In this document: positions 9,635 through 22,472 of the stretch, one piece after another
Numbering within the stretch: the first letter of the stretch is position 1
Layout: every line of letters begins with the position of its first letter
Origin: an uncultured Gammaproteobacteria bacterium
GTDB lineage: Bacteria > Patescibacteriota > Microgenomatia > CAZETR01 > Amesbacteraceae
Assembly: GCA_964356225.1 (NCBI GenBank)
Contig: CAYHGA010000001.1
Location: 29,573-93,572 of the forward strand
Length of the DNA stretch: 64,000 nucleotides
Reading direction: 5' to 3'
Notes under the pieces: model-generated
The model's input: the letters and a program-made list of their open reading frames with translations, nothing else
The model's database searches: none
What the model was told of the DNA's origin: nothing
Position numbers and translations under genes: made by a program

Positions 9635-10387
9635 TTAACTCAATACGTAATCCAGTTGACTTGCAATTACTTTATTGAAATCCTGCAAAAATTGGCTTAG
9701 AAAAACTTTGGATTCAACGAGAGGAAAGAGATCATTGTAGACAAATTGGGGATCTACTAAACCGACTTTGGTTTTCACCAAGTCCCGTATTTCCGAAAGA
9801 GTCTTTTTTTCTAAAAGGGACATCAATTGTTTGATATTTGGTTTGAGCGAATAGCCGGTTTTGGCAGAAAGCTGAAGTAACCAATATATGTCGAAAACAT
9901 CCCGTCCTTTAAACGGAATTTTTTGAAACTTACCCTTGAAAAAATTTCTATTTAAAAATGCAACTATCTTATTGGCGTAAAGAGTGGGCAGATCATAAGT
10001 ATTGACAAAAAATTGACGGTTATCAGCTGTAATTAAGCTTTTTTGTACATGATATTCTTTAGTAGTAATTTTTGAAAAATCACATCTCACAAAAATATTG
10101 TCAGGAAATTTTACAAACACGGTCGCATTATTACCGGATATCTTAGTTCCGGCTGATAGATATTTACCAAGATCTTTGGCAAACGTCTGAATATCAAATG
10201 ACGTGCTTGCCGGAATATCAAAATCCAAATCTTCAGACAAACGGTTTAAACCATACACTTTACGCAAACAGGTCCCACCGGTAAAGACTAACCTGTTATA
10301 AATCCCATCGTTATATACAAAATTTAGAATCTCGTCTTGCCAACGTTCCTTTATTAGATTCCTCTGATAAGTATTATCGTCGCTCAT
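9635..10387 (-). CDS. AbiEii/AbiGii-family nucleotidyltransferase (type IV TA toxin-like)
   Basis: LVFTGGTCLRKVYGLNRLSEDLDFD is the GGT..R.S.DLD signature of the DUF1814/AbiEii nucleotidyltransferase fold. It overlaps the upstream AbiEi-like gene by 14 nt. Confidence 0.7.
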   Translation of the reverse strand: MSDDNTYQRNLIKERWQDEILNFVYNDGIYNRLVFTGGTCLRKVYGLNRLSEDLDFDIPASTSFDIQTFAKDLGKYLSAGTKISGNNATVFVKFPDNIFVRCDFSKITTKEYHVQKSLITADNRQFFVNTYDLPTLYANKIVAFLNRNFFKGKFQKIPFKGRDVFDIYWLLQLSAKTGYSLKPNIKQLMSLLEKKTLSEIRDLVKTKVGLVDPQFVYNDLFPLVESKVFLSQFLQDFNKVIASQLDYVLS

Positions 10388-11057
10388 ATAAATATTGCAA
10401 TATTTTACTCATTTTTTTTGACTTGGATTTAGTCACAATCTCTTTAAATTCTTGCATGTCTGCGGCTGTAAAAACAGTCCAATTAAACCTTGAACCGAAT
10501 AAAAACTCCCGTGTTAACTGGTCAGTTATAAGCGGAGTCAGATATATAAAATCAAACATCGCCTTGGCTGGACTGGCAATTTTGTAAGAGAAATCTCCAT
10601 AGAATCTTTGTGTATACCCCCAAAACAAACCGGGTTTGATATTCCGGTATCTAAAACTCATAAGTTTGCTCTGAAACGTCCTGGTCTTCTTGGTGGTCAC
10701 ATTTGTGATGGTATATACACTTTCTGCTAATATTCCGTAAAGTGCCAATGCGTACTCTAAAGATATATAACTATCCCGCACTATTTCGCATCCAATATAT
10801 CTTGCCAATTCTTCTGGCGCGGATGATTTTTGATACAAAGTTTCGTTTAGATAAAATCCGGGTTTAATTGTATCCAACAAGCCTGCCTTTATGAGAGACC
10901 TAATGCGATAATCCAAAGTGCGGCGGTTGTTACCTAAAAGCACCTCTAGATTTTGCCTGGTAAAAAATGGGGCCGTGCTTTCTGAGATCAGTTTCTTGTA
11001 GTCTATTTCCATATGCACATAATTATATGTGCAACCGGAAACGGAGTCAAGTAGCAA
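10374..11057 (-). CDS. AbiEi-like antitoxin / transcriptional regulator
   Basis: N-terminal wHTH-like region (TRQNLEVLLGNNRRTLDYRIRSLIKAGLL) followed by a C-terminal domain. The probable true start is the ATG of MEIDYKK near 11012. Confidence 0.6.
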   Translation of the reverse strand: MLLDSVSGCTYNYVHMEIDYKKLISESTAPFFTRQNLEVLLGNNRRTLDYRIRSLIKAGLLDTIKPGFYLNETLYQKSSAPEELARYIGCEIVRDSYISLEYALALYGILAESVYTITNVTTKKTRTFQSKLMSFRYRNIKPGLFWGYTQRFYGDFSYKIASPAKAMFDFIYLTPLITDQLTREFLFGSRFNWTVFTAADMQEFKEIVTKSKSKKMSKILQYLYERR

Positions 11058-11099
11058 TTATGTTGCAAATAGGGGTGAGAAAGTAGATAATAGCAAGTA

Positions 11100-12374
11100 A
11101 TGGATCAACTTATTCCAACTATTACGGCAGAACCTCCTAAAACTAACTGGTTACTATTTTTGTTGGTGGGAATAGTTATTTTGAGTATGGGAATTGGGAT
11201 TGGATTATTTTTGGCAAAAAATATTTATCCGCCTTTGCAAAGTCTGCCCGCTTCAACTCCTTCTCCAACCCCAATCGCCGACCCCACCGCCAACTGGAAA
11301 ACATATACAATTGAAAAATTTGGAATCCAATTTAAACTTCCAAGCAAACTAAGCACTCTCGGGGATCTGGATATAAAAGAATGTGCTGGCGAAAAAGGCA
11401 TGGAATTTAGCGCCACACTACCCTCCAACAAATCATCCGGATATCTCATTTCCGTAGTCTATGCGGGAGGAGGATGTGCCGCACATAATCTATTCAGTAT
11501 GGGTGCAGTATCTTCTGATTATGAAGCCGGAAGAAGCAGGAGATTTACCGATACAAATGGGTACGTTTCCAAAACCGGAACATATTATTGCGTTGGCCCC
11601 GGTGCGGTCAGAAATGATGAAGTTCCGAGCCATCTCGCAAAAGAAATGGTTTCTAAAAATGGAGTTACCGTGTTGAGGATCATGGGTGAAGATGAATCCT
11701 ATGGAACTTGGCCAAAACTCTGTACTCCCGGCAGTGGCAAGATAGGAGCCTTAGTTAATCTTTCCAATAATAAAACGTTCCCGGGAATTGCAATCCAAAT
11801 GGATGTGACAGATCAACTTTCAGAAAACCTATTTGACCAAATCCTCTCCACGTTTAAATTCACGGGTGTCTCGGTCACTCCAACGCCAACTCCAACTCCA
11901 ACCATCACGCCAACCTCTAATCCAAAGACAACATATATCGTTCCCACTAGCTGGAAAAGACTTACCACCCAAAGTGGCCTGAATCTGTGTTTGCCACCCA
12001 AATGGGAAGTTGAGGCCTACGACCACCTTATTTTTAATCGGGATGAGGGATACAAACCGAGCATTACCTATATTACAAACCTTCCTTATTCAGGTGGCTC
12101 ACGGCGTGAAGCGTATTTTGCCTATTGGGTACAGGAATATCCGGATGTAAAGCAATTAGTTTCCGTAGCGGACACCGATATAAACGGAAATTCCGCCCTG
12201 ACTATCTATCCGGCGAACTCTTCTGACCCCAAGACATCCCCCGAGGGGTTAACGGTAGTCTGGTTTTCCGCCGGAAAACTATGGAAAGCGGGCCTGTCTG
12301 GTTGGAATATGACCAACGCCTCGCAAACGTCTTTTCTGAAGGACTTTTACACGATGATTAGCTGTAGCTTCTAA
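11100..12374 (+). CDS. Membrane-anchored secreted protein, paralog A (signal anchor, DPTANWKTYT motif, TP linker)
   Basis: N-terminal TM helix, TPSPTPIADPTANWKTYT, an internal TPTPTPTPTITPT linker and the QILSTFKF motif shared with the 13324..14019 protein. Confidence 0.6.
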   Translation: MDQLIPTITAEPPKTNWLLFLLVGIVILSMGIGIGLFLAKNIYPPLQSLPASTPSPTPIADPTANWKTYTIEKFGIQFKLPSKLSTLGDLDIKECAGEKGMEFSATLPSNKSSGYLISVVYAGGGCAAHNLFSMGAVSSDYEAGRSRRFTDTNGYVSKTGTYYCVGPGAVRNDEVPSHLAKEMVSKNGVTVLRIMGEDESYGTWPKLCTPGSGKIGALVNLSNNKTFPGIAIQMDVTDQLSENLFDQILSTFKFTGVSVTPTPTPTPTITPTSNPKTTYIVPTSWKRLTTQSGLNLCLPPKWEVEAYDHLIFNRDEGYKPSITYITNLPYSGGSRREAYFAYWVQEYPDVKQLVSVADTDINGNSALTIYPANSSDPKTSPEGLTVVWFSAGKLWKAGLSGWNMTNASQTSFLKDFYTMISCSF

Positions 12375-12421
12375 GTAACCGGCACTCACTAATCTGTCGT
12401 AGTTTGGGGTATAATTGAGAT

Positions 12422-12667
12422 ATGAGCTCTACCAGACCATATTTTTTGTGGGATTATGATTTGACCGAGAATGACGTCAGGAGGATTCTGCGTGGGGAAA
12501 ATCAAACAGACAAGATTTGGATTATGTCGAGGATTCTGGAAAGCGCCAAGTTTGAAGATGTTTGGAAATATACAACCTTGTCTGATGTCAGATCGATGAT
12601 GCCGATATTAAAAATCAAAAAACCTATCCGTCAAGCCTGGGAACGGGCCTTAACAATATGGCAGTAA
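12422..12667 (+). CDS. Small protein resembling the C-terminal domain of the AbiEi-like antitoxin (truncated antitoxin?)
   Basis: YFLWDYDLTENDVRRIL...MSRILE aligns by eye with FLFGSRFNWTVFTAADMQEFKEI...MSKILQYL at the C-terminus of the 10374..11057 protein. A TATAAT sits directly upstream, and the ORF overlaps the following NTase gene by 10 nt. Confidence 0.4.
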   Translation: MSSTRPYFLWDYDLTENDVRRILRGENQTDKIWIMSRILESAKFEDVWKYTTLSDVRSMMPILKIKKPIRQAWERALTIWQ

Positions 12668-13320
12668 ATTACGTACTCCAAGACAAATTTTTGAATTTAT
12701 TTTTTTTCGGCCGTTTTGCAGCGGATTTTTATCTGACGGGCGGTACAGCTCTGGTACGATTTTATTTTCAGCACCGCGAAAGTGTAGATTTGGATTTGTT
12801 TAGCCAAAATCAACAGTTGGATTTTTCGGCTGTAAATTTAGAGGTTGAACGTATTGGCCGTGAGTTAAAACTAATAACTATCAAACAAGTGACCACGAAC
12901 ACTTTTTTGCAATTTATATTTGAAAGTACAGAGGGAGATACATTGAAGGTGGATGTAGTTAAGGATATTCCGGTACATTTTGGAGAGTTTAAACAAGAGG
13001 GTAAAGTGAGATTGGACTCATTGGAAAATATAGGTTCAAATAAAATCACAGCTATTTTTGGCCGGACTGATCACAAAGATTTTATTGATTTATATTACAT
13101 TTTAAATAAGACAGATTTTACATTCGAACATTTGGTTTCGCTGGCTAAGCAGAAAGATTTGGGGTTAACCGAATTTTATCTGGCCAATTCGATTGATCAA
13201 ATTGAGCAGACTTCACAAATGCCGGTCTTACTAAAACCACTTGATATAAAGAAATACAACGAATTTTACAAAAAACTTTCCCGGGATTTATTTTTAAAAA
13301 TCAAACCAGAAGATAAATAA
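12658..13320 (+). CDS. AbiEii-family nucleotidyltransferase, second copy
   Basis: FYLTGGTALVRFYFQHRESVDLDLF carries the same GGT..R.S.DLD signature. Confidence 0.7.
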   Translation: MAVNYVLQDKFLNLFFFGRFAADFYLTGGTALVRFYFQHRESVDLDLFSQNQQLDFSAVNLEVERIGRELKLITIKQVTTNTFLQFIFESTEGDTLKVDVVKDIPVHFGEFKQEGKVRLDSLENIGSNKITAIFGRTDHKDFIDLYYILNKTDFTFEHLVSLAKQKDLGLTEFYLANSIDQIEQTSQMPVLLKPLDIKKYNEFYKKLSRDLFLKIKPEDK

Positions 13321-13323
13321 TCT

Positions 13324-14019
13324 ATGGATCAACCTATTCCAACTATTTCTCCGGTCGCCCCATCTCCCAAAACCAACTGGCTATTATTTTTGTTGACAGG
13401 AGTTGTGATTTTATTGGTTGGTATCACTGCCGGGCTTGTGATCGGAAAGTATATTTATGCTCCCAAACCCACCCCAACGGCCGACCCCACCGCCAACTGG
13501 AAAACATATACCAGTAATAAATATGATTATCAATTCAAATATCCCCAAATTCCACCCGAGGCCTCCAGCGCATTTAAATTTTCACTTAACGACAAACTGT
13601 CTGAACTATGGGGACCAGACAATCTAATTTTTAGAATTGAAGTATTTGAAAATATCAACAATCCGCAACTTTGGTGGGAAAATCAAGCTATTGAACCATT
13701 TACTAAACTGGCGGTGAACAACTTTGACTTCACAGAGACAACGCTAAACAGCTATCCAGGATACTCTGCTCAGGTCAAAACAGAATTTCAAGAACCAAAA
13801 AAGGTGTTTAGAACGTATGTGCTTAGCAATAATGATAATGTGTATCTAATTCACTCAGATTATGGTCAGTGGAGTAACCAAATCCTCTCCACGTTTAAGT
13901 TTGTGGAGCAGGCAACGCCGAAGCCGACGTGCAAGCCCAGACCGGCTTGCTTAGATACTTCACCCCGCTGTCTGCTTCCGGAAACATCTGACATGTGTCC
14001 ACCAAATCAGAAGTTATAA
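13324..14019 (+). CDS. Membrane-anchored secreted protein, paralog B
   Basis: The N-terminus (MDQPIPTISPVAPSPKTNWLLFLL...DPTANWKTYT) and the C-terminal NQILSTFKF are near-identical in pattern to the 11100..12374 protein. It starts 4 nt after the NTase stop. Confidence 0.6.
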   Translation: MDQPIPTISPVAPSPKTNWLLFLLTGVVILLVGITAGLVIGKYIYAPKPTPTADPTANWKTYTSNKYDYQFKYPQIPPEASSAFKFSLNDKLSELWGPDNLIFRIEVFENINNPQLWWENQAIEPFTKLAVNNFDFTETTLNSYPGYSAQVKTEFQEPKKVFRTYVLSNNDNVYLIHSDYGQWSNQILSTFKFVEQATPKPTCKPRPACLDTSPRCLLPETSDMCPPNQKL

Positions 14020-14403
14020 CGAATGGGAGTGTGATTTAAGCCAGGATGAGATTTCTTTGACTCCTGGTTTGGAATTGTCGACATAAACCATAAAATCTGC
14101 GGCTTCTTTGCGGTTTGATTTGAGGTGATAACCATTATCCCAGAGAAATTTATGAGTTACGGTCCAAGCTGTGCGTTTGTTGCCGTCGGTAAACGGGTGA
14201 TTTAAGCAAACGGATTGCAGGAGGGCCGCGGCTTTGGCAAAAAGGGTGGGGTAAAGATCTTGACCAGCGTAGGTAGCTTTGGGCCGCTCGAGGGCAGAAT
14301 GGAGGAGAGCAAAATCGCGAACCGCTGCTTTGGTGCCAGCCCTGACAATGATTATTTCATGAATACGATAGGCCTCTTCTATATTAACGATCTGCCAGTT
14401 CAT
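14014..14403 (-). CDS. doc: Doc (death-on-curing) Fic-family toxin
   Basis: HPFTDGNKRTA matches the Doc variant of the Fic motif, HxFx(D/N)GNKR. Confidence 0.8.
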   Translation of the reverse strand: MNWQIVNIEEAYRIHEIIIVRAGTKAAVRDFALLHSALERPKATYAGQDLYPTLFAKAAALLQSVCLNHPFTDGNKRTAWTVTHKFLWDNGYHLKSNRKEAADFMVYVDNSKPGVKEISSWLKSHSHSL

Positions 14404-14665
14404 CGAGAATTTCGGCGTTCTCTTTCATAAAAACGCTAAGCCATTTTTGAAAACCTGCGTCGGATTTTCTAATTTTGGGAGAAGTTTTTTTTATAACAAT
14501 GGTAGTATCGTCTGCTGTCCCCACTAAGACCTTGCTACCAATTTTGAGATTGAGATCGGCCAGGACATCGCTAGGGATAGCGATAACTTGACTATTGCCG
14601 GCTTTGAAAATAGTTTGGAGTTGCATTGTACTAACAATGTTAGTACATAAAATTTTGCTTGTCAA
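14384..14665 (-). CDS. AbrB/MazE/SpoVT-fold antitoxin (Phd functional equivalent)
   Basis: IFKAGNSQVIAIPSDVLADLNLKIGSKV is a swapped-hairpin AbrB-type DNA-binding domain. The ORF overlaps the doc start. Confidence 0.65.
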   Translation of the reverse strand: MTSKILCTNIVSTMQLQTIFKAGNSQVIAIPSDVLADLNLKIGSKVLVGTADDTTIVIKKTSPKIRKSDAGFQKWLSVFMKENAEILDELADR

Positions 14666-20330: not shown

Positions 20331-20750
20331 TCATGTTAATGGGTCAACAATTTTAATATCTCTCATAGGGAAATGCCTGGTATTGCAAGTAATGAGGGCT
20401 ATTTTTTTTATCCTGCAAGTCGCAGCGATCAAATAATCTATCAAATTACTATTAACACTTCGGTATCTATGCCAATATTCTCCCGCTAGTTTGGCTATCG
20501 TAAAATCTATGGGGATCTGATTATGCCACTTGAAAAAATGCCGGTTTGATGGTTCTTCTTCGGGAAAAGAATTTTTGTAAATTTCGCTAACGGTTAAAAC
20601 AGAAATAACTACGGACTGGTCATTCACTATTTTTGAAACGGCTTCAATTATCTTTTTATTTCCTCTGATTATCCAAATTGAAACATCTGAATCAAGCAAA
20701 AATCTACTTTTTGCTTTTGGTTTTGGCATAGGGAATATATGAGTAATCAC
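20331..20750 (-). CDS. vapC: PIN-domain toxin VapC
   Basis: LLDSDVSIWIIRG and the downstream acidic residues fit a PIN fold. The ORF overlaps the vapB stop. Confidence 0.7.
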   Translation of the reverse strand: MITHIFPMPKPKAKSRFLLDSDVSIWIIRGNKKIIEAVSKIVNDQSVVISVLTVSEIYKNSFPEEEPSNRHFFKWHNQIPIDFTIAKLAGEYWHRYRSVNSNLIDYLIAATCRIKKIALITCNTRHFPMRDIKIVDPLT

Positions 20751-21015
20751 GATTAGCCGCAGCCCGACCTTTGTTTACCCAATTTACAATATTTTCTATA
20801 TTTTCCCATCCGGGCCTACTTCTTATACCCAACACGCCGGTAAATTTTCTCAACGCGTCTGCGTAGGAAGTCTTTTTTCTTCCCAATTTCAACTGTTTGC
20901 TAACAGCCATGGCCACAAAACGACTTCTTTGTCTAGTGGATACCCGATCTTTTAAATCCAAATATAAATCCCAAGGTAATGTAAAATTTACTCTGGTCAT
21001 TGTTTGCATATACAC
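20704..21015 (-). CDS. vapB: Ribbon-helix-helix antitoxin VapB
   Basis: TRVNFTLPWDLYLDLKDRV...RSRFVAMAV reads as an RHH/CopG-like N-terminus. Confidence 0.6.
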   Translation of the reverse strand: MYMQTMTRVNFTLPWDLYLDLKDRVSTRQRSRFVAMAVSKQLKLGRKKTSYADALRKFTGVLGIRSRPGWENIENIVNWVNKGRAAANRDYSYIPYAKTKSKK

Positions 21016-22063: not shown

Positions 22064-22201
22064 ATACTTCGGAATGAGATGAGCTTGCCCGGGATCTTCG
22101 GCGAAGCCGTTTAGCTCTTCTATTATCTCTAAGCGTAGGCTCTTTTCCAGTTTACGAAAATTTTTTTCAAATTGGGGAGAATAGTAAAATTTCTTAATCA
22201 T
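22064..22201 (-). pseudogene. Truncated RelE/ParE-like toxin remnant (about 45 aa)
   Basis: Minus-strand ORF MIKKFYYSPQFEKNFRKLEKSLRLEIIEELNGFAEDPGQAHLIPKY* overlaps the Phd stop by 8 nt, as in a TA operon. It terminates before the conserved RelE C-terminal half. Confidence 0.4.
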
Positions 22202-22472
22202 CTAAAAACTCGGAAAAATCGGTGGTAGATTTGAGCTTGCCTGCTTTAAAATCCACTTCAGTCTGTTTAATACCCTGTAACAGCTTCTCGTCTTCCAGCT
22301 CTTGGATCCTGTCGAGAATTTTTTGCAGTTTTCCGACGTTTAGCATAGCCACTTCCGGCTTGTTATTACGCATTACAACCACTGGCTGGTTTCCAGATTT
22401 GGCCAGGTTTAAAATCCTGGCAGAATCCCGTTGCAAATCGGAAGCAGAAACAAGAGTAGGAAGTATGTTCAT
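22194..22472 (-). CDS. Phd/YefM-family antitoxin
   Basis: A 92-aa protein with the typical Phd/YefM N-terminus (SASDLQRDSARILNLAKSGNQPVVV). Confidence 0.7.
   Translation of the reverse strand: MNILPTLVSASDLQRDSARILNLAKSGNQPVVVMRNNKPEVAMLNVGKLQKILDRIQELEDEKLLQGIKQTEVDFKAGKLKSTTDFSEFLDD

Follow-up and report, generated by a model that had tools for sequence, protein, structure and literature searches.

We analysed a 64,000-nucleotide stretch of contig CAYHGA010000001.1 (the window), a metagenomic assembly from an uncultured Patescibacteria/Microgenomates-type bacterium of Hainich aquifer groundwater, and found that an island lying between alaS on one side and a rodZ-like gene and ftsK on the other carries three predicted toxin-antitoxin (TA) gene pairs beside two paralogous genes for surface proteins with a signal anchor (membrane proteins 1 and 2). 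The pairs are an AbiEi antitoxin with an AbiEii nucleotidyltransferase (NTase) toxin (AbiEi-1 with AbiEii-1, or NTase-1; module 1), an 81-aa helical protein with a second AbiEii-like NTase (NTase-2; module 2) and, directly beyond membrane protein 2 and outside the first-pass annotation of this DNA, a Doc toxin with an AbrB/MazE-fold antitoxin. That annotation had called six open reading frames (ORFs) here, all of which are present where it placed them, and had read them as a duplicated, partly inverted module linking an AbiE-type toxin to a surface protein. We consider it probable that independent TA cassettes have instead repeatedly inserted, or been retained, in a recombination-prone array of surface-protein genes, and that the nearness of toxin and surface protein is positional rather than mechanistic. 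On this reading, the island would be a small variable region built on a tandem pair of PsbP-like paralogs, with three self-contained TA cassettes at gene boundaries. All assemblies compared with the window were metagenomic; loci are designated by L numbers and homologous proteins by P numbers.

Profile searches confirmed the earlier assignment of both NTases as AbiEii-type toxins. AbiEii-1 matched PF08843 at 74.8 bits (E=1.3e-20) and NTase-2 at 59.9 bits (E=4.5e-16), against a cut-off of 22.5 bits, and each matched many PADLOC AbiEii models (6.4e-29 for AbiEii-1). A housekeeping NTase family, named beforehand as the alternative, does not describe them, both lying far above the AbiEii threshold. 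The motifs TGGT...RLSEDLDF and KGRDVFDIYW of AbiEii-1 aligned with their equivalents in the DUF1814 structures 4O8S and 6Y56. NTase-2, whose closest solved relative is the H. pylori DUF1814 protein 4O8S (E=1e-9), keeps 17 of the 17 invariant positions of its family alignment, among them G28, G29, T30, H39, R40, S42, D44, D46, S121, K129, R136, D141 and D144. An S-x-D arrangement is present in both enzymes, and the R-x-S/T-x-D loop of the window matches by motif R76/S78 of MenT3 and T39/D41 of MenT1 (PMC11375011; PMC10435456). The BLASTP alignment between the two NTases was limited to the GGT...DLD catalytic motif (E=3e-4), and the two upstream proteins, AbiEi-1 and the 81-aa protein, shared nothing by BLASTP. 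These pairwise comparisons rule out a duplication of the module: the NTases share motifs only, their partners are unrelated, and each cassette has its own sharp homology boundaries. Judged from their sequences, the two cassettes are unrelated and each is an independent unit. The accompanying statement that an AbiEi-related gene precedes each NTase holds for NTase-1, which follows a full-length AbiEi, and fails for NTase-2, which follows a member of an unrelated small family.

In module 1, AbiEi-1 matched PADLOC AbiEi at 2.8e-40 across residues 28-224 and NCBIfam TAA_AbiEi at 4e-8, and its winged helix-turn-helix (wHTH) region gave a weak AbiEi_4 match just under the cut-off (E=1.2e-4); the PADLOC match across the whole length and the wHTH match support the full-length AbiEi first annotated before NTase-1. 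The gene overlaps the start of AbiEii-1 by 14 nt. Its start codon is probably the ATG at 11012 rather than 11057, because homologs are 205-214 aa long and a near-identical contig carries a 212-aa call. Upstream of this ATG lies a predicted promoter, TTGACT-17-TATAAT, that fits the sigma-70 pattern at 11 of 12 positions, with the start codon ~10 nt downstream of the -10 box and a perfect 8+8 palindrome, TGCACATA-ATTA-TATGTGCA at 11014-11033, centred on that box. The palindrome is a putative AbiEi operator and, as far as a sequence pattern can tell, promoter and palindrome together would fit the expectation for an autoregulated AbiE operon. The cassette is sharply bounded: a Gottesmanbacteria contig (L049) showed 76.7% DNA identity over exactly 9642-11052, which covers AbiEii-1 and AbiEi-1, and none beyond. 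Remoter relatives of the cassette were found in unrelated settings, namely in a cluster for glycan synthesis, adjoining genes for ribosomal proteins, and alongside TA pairs of the PIN or BrnT kind.

The protein encoded upstream of NTase-2 had been taken for a fragment of the AbiEi C-terminal domain. We found it to be of normal full length for a conserved, all-helical family of ~80-100 aa, for which a word-indexed search returned 239 relatives and a full profile search 408 representative clusters; among 120 listed relatives, nearly all were 73-107 aa long, with 16 invariant residues. A degenerate AbiEi remnant that keeps only the antitoxic C-terminal domain would agree with the place of the small gene, which is that of AbiEi before an AbiEii-type gene, and with the N-terminal extension seen in some family members of ~140 aa. 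Such a remnant is highly improbable, given that BLASTP found no match between the 81-aa protein and AbiEi-1, profile-profile comparison of the two families by hhalign gave a probability of 0.1%, the family is uniformly about 80-100 aa long, and Pfam scans of the N-terminal extensions revealed no domain above the curated cut-off and no DNA-binding domain. In addition, the 81-aa protein has no fold match to AbiEi. The extended relatives (P0242-P0286) measure ~135-165 aa, of which ~60 aa are the extension.

The small protein is a conserved partner of the NTase-2 subfamily. Where enough downstream sequence was available, 75 of 80 small genes were directly followed by an AbiEii-family ORF, usually with overlapping frames, as in the window, where the start of NTase-2 overlaps the small gene by 10 nt; furthermore, two representatives (P0254 and P0334) have the small domain fused to an AbiEii domain. 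From this co-occurrence, the overlapping frames and the fusions, the 81-aa protein is presumed to be the cognate antitoxin of the NTase-2 subfamily. Since the partner of NTase-2 is no shortened AbiEi, the question raised by the first-pass annotation, of how a toxin with a truncated antitoxin is held in check, falls away. The 81-aa protein also resembled MenA1 neither in profile nor in fold, and searching its profile against all PDB sequences gave nothing below E=0.5. The sole Pfam signal was DUF6922 (15.4 bits, E=0.013, under the gathering threshold of 27), with weak matches in 9 of 40 family members (best E=0.004). Membership in DUF6922 was rejected, all matches being sub-threshold, while a distant relation is possible from these matches; a full-text search found no paper on DUF6922. 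Five small genes (L126, L129, L132, L155 and L131) have no recognisable AbiEii ORF next to them and are followed by ORFs of 298-619 aa or by ORFs on the other strand, which may be alternative partners. Some very large proteins (P0260, 3622 aa; P0355, 1315 aa; P0370; P0390) likewise end in the small domain at their extreme C-terminus, and one of them has an AAA_16-like region.

Cassette 2, the small gene with NTase-2, has boundaries of its own. In five loci the DNA homology begins at 12405-12406, 16-17 nt before the small gene; it stops with the NTase-2 stop codon in three of the five and goes on for ~155 nt into the conserved 5' end of the membrane protein 2 gene in L089 and L090. A TATAAT box lies 6 nt before the small-gene ATG, and a TAnAAT box 6-7 nt before the start is kept in 14 cassettes of unrelated context, with five of its six positions invariant and, in several of the 14, with a TGn extended -10. 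This conservation suggests that cassette 2 has its own -10 promoter and a leaderless or near-leaderless transcript, and hence that it may be a self-contained unit. The closest out-group cassettes lie in a ribosomal operon (L007), adjoining dnaN (L004) and adjoining Rhs genes (L001). The first of these (L007, 6001-6896), a close relative with an NTase at 80% identity, is flanked by a NUDIX gene and secY inside the operon for ribosomal proteins, and has its own TGnTAAAAT box. Two sister assemblies of the same population, L008 and L009, depart from the window at 30 and 38 places in 20.7 kb, and in each case 25 of these lie in 12694-12893, a 200-bp tract at the 5' end of NTase-2 that contains a 2-bp deletion frameshifting NTase-2 near codon 17 and a D44N change at an invariant catalytic Asp. 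The tract looks like a recombination tract with a dead toxin allele, and from the frameshift and D44N, NTase-2 appears to be dead in part of the population.

The neighbours of the two cassettes are paralogs, as had been noted from their signal anchor, DPTANWKTYT motif and NQILSTFKF. Membrane proteins 1 and 2 are 58% identical across the N-terminal 84 aa and have QILSTFKF and matching DNA repeats in common, and theirs are the only two genuine ANWKTY motifs in the 64 kb; five other loose W[KRQ][TSV][YF] matches in the window all fall in stop-interrupted frames. Membrane protein 2 consists of a signal anchor, a predicted PsbP-like extracytoplasmic domain between DPTANWKTYT and NQILSTFKF, and a Cys-rich tail, TCKPRPACLDTSPRCLLPETSDMCPPNQKL. 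Its AlphaFold2 (AF2) model (pLDDT 78) has a transmembrane helix at residues 19-44 followed by an alpha/beta domain, for which Foldseek returned PsbP (E=2.7e-4, TM about 0.5) and, more weakly, DcrB and LpqN. Neither window protein had a Pfam match; two homologs scored above the 27-bit cut-off of PsbP_2 (PF18933) and the rest just below it, and one spanned the whole profile. Membrane protein 1 has a signal anchor, a DPTANWKTYT box, a variable domain, a QILSTFKF box, a PT linker and a second C-terminal domain; its C-terminal half is 87% identical in DNA to the last array member in L092. Across the family, the signal anchor, the DPTANWKTY box, the QILSTFKF box and a four-Cys tail are shared, and the region between the boxes is essentially unalignable. 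The four-Cys tail, TCKPRPACLDATPRCxIPETSDMCPPNQKL (13927-14019; homologs P0122-P0170), is strongly conserved and ends many members across Microgenomates; membrane protein 1 has its second domain in place of it. Compared with L089 (1458-1914), the middle of membrane protein 2 (13478-13877) has no DNA similarity, and cassette 2 and both ends of membrane protein 2 are at 76-83% DNA identity, with breakpoints at the two conserved boxes, which suggests domain replacement or extreme diversification of the middle. At the QILSTFKF box (13877-13907; 11828-11863; members in L010-L168), conservation of the DNA exceeds what the protein requires: the codons ATC, CTC and TCC occur there in 81%, 77% and 69% of 108 paralogs, versus 21%, 14% and 16% family-wide, and blocks of 30-36 nt are 94-100% identical between genomes. 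This conservation could mark a recombination box or an RNA/DNA signal. A literature search found nothing on PsbP-like proteins in the candidate phyla radiation (CPR).

NTase-2 and membrane protein 2 are adjacent on one strand, as first annotated, with a gap of 3 nt. The recurrence of this linkage was assessed in an unbiased set of loci, retrieved via the small protein and not via the membrane family. A same-strand membrane-family gene immediately follows the NTase in 10 of the 46 cassettes with downstream sequence. Once cassettes were de-replicated at a threshold of 90% identity between their NTases, such a gene lay directly downstream in 7/31 (~23%) and directly upstream in 4/29, against a background of 3/149 (2%) among genes at least three positions away (Fisher test combining the upstream and downstream counts: odds ratio (OR) 11, p=9e-5). 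In a neighbour-joining tree of the NTases, drawn without support values, the adjacent cases fall into five separate groups of the unbiased set, interspersed with non-adjacent relatives, and five more adjacent groups are found among the loci retrieved via the membrane protein. The order small gene, NTase, membrane gene recurs in L089-L093, L122, L135, L150, L151, L167 and L074. Thus, the adjacency of the NTase and the ANWKTY protein, which the first-pass annotation had suggested seeking in other CPR genomes, does recur in them far above background.

The association is not specific to NTases. Among 79 reference-genome loci found via the membrane family, its genes often form arrays of 2-9 copies. 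We found 66 genes between paralog copies (median 94 aa), at least 28 of which are TA components, from TA modules of at least eight families: HicA occurs six times, PIN four to six times, Fic, AbiEii and HicB three times each, and DUF433, DUF5615 and Phd twice each; HEPN, Gp49 and DUF2283 are interleaved as well. For comparison, 150 control genes were taken from the same loci at a distance of four genes or more, and none of the TA families was represented among them more than once. Opposite-strand genes account for about 38% of those interleaved and, one recent duplication (L074) apart, TA pairs that share an array bear no relation to one another. The same conserved chromosomal site holds different contents in different genomes: the order is alaS, one membrane gene, Doc-MazE, rodZ and ftsK in L032; alaS, membrane gene, small gene-NTase, membrane gene, rodZ and ftsK in L135; and alaS, membrane gene, AbiE, membrane gene, small gene-NTase, membrane gene and Fic-MazE in L169. 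Since many TA families interleave with the paralogs and most cassettes lie in unrelated contexts, these results argue against a dedicated NTase-surface-protein unit, the arrangement that had first been proposed. Duplication of a unit of membrane gene plus TA pair was rejected as well, the TA pairs within arrays being unrelated bar the recent duplicate. In L055 (2192-5878), L049 (1399-9471) and L169 (2344-7007), one membrane gene and one TA pair alternate in at least three repeats, and the pairs inside one array belong to different families. The intergenic gaps of 3-47 nt contain no inverted repeats and no attC-like sites, and no integrase was found in the gene maps of the window or of related loci; an integron-like array was rejected, there being no room for attC and no inverted repeats.

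The way in which these cassettes might work can be sketched from characterised relatives. MenT1, MenT3, MenT4 and AbiEii add nucleotides to tRNA 3' ends, and the short MenA1 and the AbiEi-like MenA3, structurally unrelated antitoxins, bind their toxins and cause them to phosphorylate themselves on the Ser/Thr that lies two residues ahead of the catalytic Asp (PMC10435456; PMC11375011; bioRxiv 10.64898/2026.01.19.700257). By homology to AbiEii and MenT, the prediction for each NTase of the window is growth arrest through nucleotide addition to tRNA 3' ends, and for each upstream partner neutralisation of its own NTase; AbiEi-1 would also repress its own promoter through the palindromic operator. 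Because the S-x-D arrangement is present in both window NTases, we propose a MenT-like logic in which the 81-aa protein would be a third kind of DUF1814-toxin partner with MenA-like neutralisation. It would act by binding directly to NTase-2 and might cause the toxin to phosphorylate its own S42, in the conserved R-x-S-x-D-x-D loop. At the scale of the island, arrays of the membrane family would be recombination-prone accessory regions, in which mobile TA cassettes of many families insert or persist.

Several points weigh against positional accumulation as the explanation. The roughly ten-fold enrichment of membrane-family neighbours could reflect selection for joint function rather than neutral accumulation, and so could the regular alternation of membrane genes and TA pairs in L169, L055, L049 and L074. 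The order membrane gene, small gene, NTase, membrane gene at the alaS/ftsK site is kept in L135 although the NTases there are only 45% identical, and this order has therefore been conserved over a long term. No known antitoxin detectably resembles the small protein, whose role is read from gene context alone. Finally, the gene calls and family hidden Markov models (HMMs) of the locus census were home-made, and the Pfam census of control genes consists of aggregate counts.

Among the alternatives, the one that survives best holds that TA cassettes are retained because a cell that loses segments of the array, through recombination from box to conserved box, is killed by them, and that they so stabilise a contingency array of surface proteins. 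TA cassettes do stabilise the superintegron arrays of Vibrio (PMC7167474), and the regular alternation just mentioned, the several unrelated TA families per array and the conserved DNA-level boxes at both paralog ends, which could drive deletions, all agree with such a lock. On the other hand, many arrays have long paralog runs with no TA genes between the copies (five copies in L012, eight in a row and nine in all in L037, and further runs in L010 and L015), and the frameshifted D44N allele in the same population suggests decay rather than maintained function. We regard the lock as unlikely. It is quite improbable that small protein, NTase and downstream membrane protein form an operon in which the toxin is coupled to a surface sensor or receptor for phage or host contact. 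The 3-nt gap on one strand in the window, the recurring gene order and the significant enrichment speak for such an operon. Against it, about 77% of the de-replicated cassettes have no such neighbour, near relatives lie in housekeeping operons, other TA families show a like adjacency in both orientations, and module 1 is divergent from, not co-oriented with, its membrane neighbour. Moreover, between orthologous loci with 83% DNA identity in the cassette, the membrane proteins have unrelated middles. A dedicated NTase-membrane-protein machine is thus unlikely. Chance adjacency in a small, TA-rich genome hardly merits belief: the window does hold a PIN toxin and a Phd antitoxin beyond the island and CPR genomes are compact, but the odds ratio of 11 persists after de-replication, and TA components make up at least 28 of the 66 interleaved genes against at most one member per TA family in the 150 controls.

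Table 1 Features of the island in the window, with positions counted from the first letter of the window.
Feature	Position	Strand	Basis
AbiEii-1, DUF1814/AbiEii nucleotidyltransferase toxin, 250 aa	9635..10387	-	PF08843, PADLOC, motifs
AbiEi-1, full-length AbiEi antitoxin/regulator, probably 212 aa	10374..11012 (ORF to 11057)	-	PADLOC, NCBIfam, homolog lengths
Predicted AbiE-1 operon promoter and palindrome	11014..11050	-	Promoter scan, inverted repeats
Membrane protein 1, 424 aa	11100..12374	+	Paralogy to membrane protein 2, family HMM match
Conserved 5' edge of cassette 2, TATAAT at 12410-12415	12405..12421	+	Cassette DNA alignment
81-aa all-helical protein, presumed NTase-2 antitoxin	12422..12667	+	Family membership, gene context
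NTase-2, AbiEii/DUF1814 toxin, 220 aa	12658..13320	+	PF08843, family alignment
Membrane protein 2, 231 aa	13324..14019	+	AF2 model, Foldseek, family alignment
Doc-type Fic toxin, 129 aa, HPFTDGNKR motif	14014..14403	-	PF02661 Fic/DOC, E=9e-18
AbrB/MazE-fold antitoxin of Doc, 80-aa gene call	14384..14626 (ORF to 14665)	-	PF04014, E=1.1e-8

Contigs 99.8% identical to the window have the same gene set between alaS and the rodZ-like gene and ftsK. The 80-aa call for the antitoxin of Doc comes from a near-identical contig, and a promoter-like site lies at 14665-14637 (10/12 in the promoter scan). G+C content is 33-37% in the TA genes, 39-47% in the membrane genes and 47-52% in the flanks, in keeping with cassettes that are independent units. 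The 64-kb window contains no tRNA genes, and a tRNA-linked island was rejected on that ground. The window has further TA genes beyond the island, namely one for a PIN-domain protein, preceded by a small partner gene (20331-21015), and one for a Phd/YefM antitoxin (22194-22472), which indicates that the genome is generally rich in TA genes.

These results bear on both TA biology and the plasticity of CPR genomes. The small proteins form a family, not described before, whose members are presumed to be antitoxins to the widespread DUF1814/AbiEii/MenT toxins and, if they do act so, a third, structurally distinct type of partner beside AbiEi/MenA3 and MenA1; module 2, as a compact two-gene cassette that appears to bring its own promoter, is directly testable. 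In this major group of uncultured, probably episymbiotic bacteria, TA modules of many families are concentrated between the copies of one fast-diversifying surface-protein family. If this concentration reflects selection, it would link TA biology to the upkeep or diversification of CPR cell-surface repertoires; if cassettes instead insert there by preference, the arrays mark a recombination hot spot that helps in reading the plasticity of CPR genomes. A bolder idea, which we regard as doubtful, is that PsbP-like arrays of Microgenomates-type CPR are a dedicated nest for TA modules, a selected, lineage-wide system in which TA cassettes act as locks or the boxes as portable homology arms. Should the homology-arm version be true, the conserved DNA boxes of the family would move TA cassettes between genomes; should the lock version be true, a contingency array of proteins that interact with host or phage would be preserved or shaped by the TA cassettes.

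The components of the island can be set against several known systems. The predicted fold of membrane protein 2 resembles that of PsbP/Mog1-fold proteins (PsbP_2, PF18933; DcrB; LpqN), to which the window family adds a signal anchor, a variable core between the boxes and a four-Cys C-terminal tail. As in the superintegron arrays of Vibrio and in genomic islands, TA modules of several unrelated kinds stand between the members of an accessory-gene array, and cassette content varies among related genomes at a conserved chromosomal site; unlike Vibrio superintegrons, the island has neither an integrase nor attC-like repeats, and its array members are paralogs of one surface-protein family in mixed orientation. 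Module 1 corresponds to AbiE, a TA and abortive-infection system of Streptococcus agalactiae and Lactococcus, in its full-length AbiEi with an N-terminal wHTH-type region, in the downstream, overlapping DUF1814 NTase with GGT and R-x-S-x-D-x-D motifs, and in a predicted promoter bearing an inverted repeat, a sequence pattern that would be consistent with autoregulation. It differs from AbiE in being remote in sequence (33 bits against the cut-off of 150 for the NCBIfam AbiEi equivalog) and in its host, an uncultured member of the Microgenomates/Patescibacteria. AbiE has historically been classed as a type IV TA system. A 2026 preprint proposes type VII. Module 2 resembles MenAT1 of Mycobacterium tuberculosis, in that a short helical protein that does not look DNA-binding is encoded just upstream of a DUF1814 NTase. 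In MenAT1, the DUF1814 toxin MenT1 is paired with the short, 68-aa antitoxin MenA1, a precedent for the control of DUF1814 toxins, via direct binding, by antitoxins unrelated to AbiEi (PMC10435456; PMC11375011).

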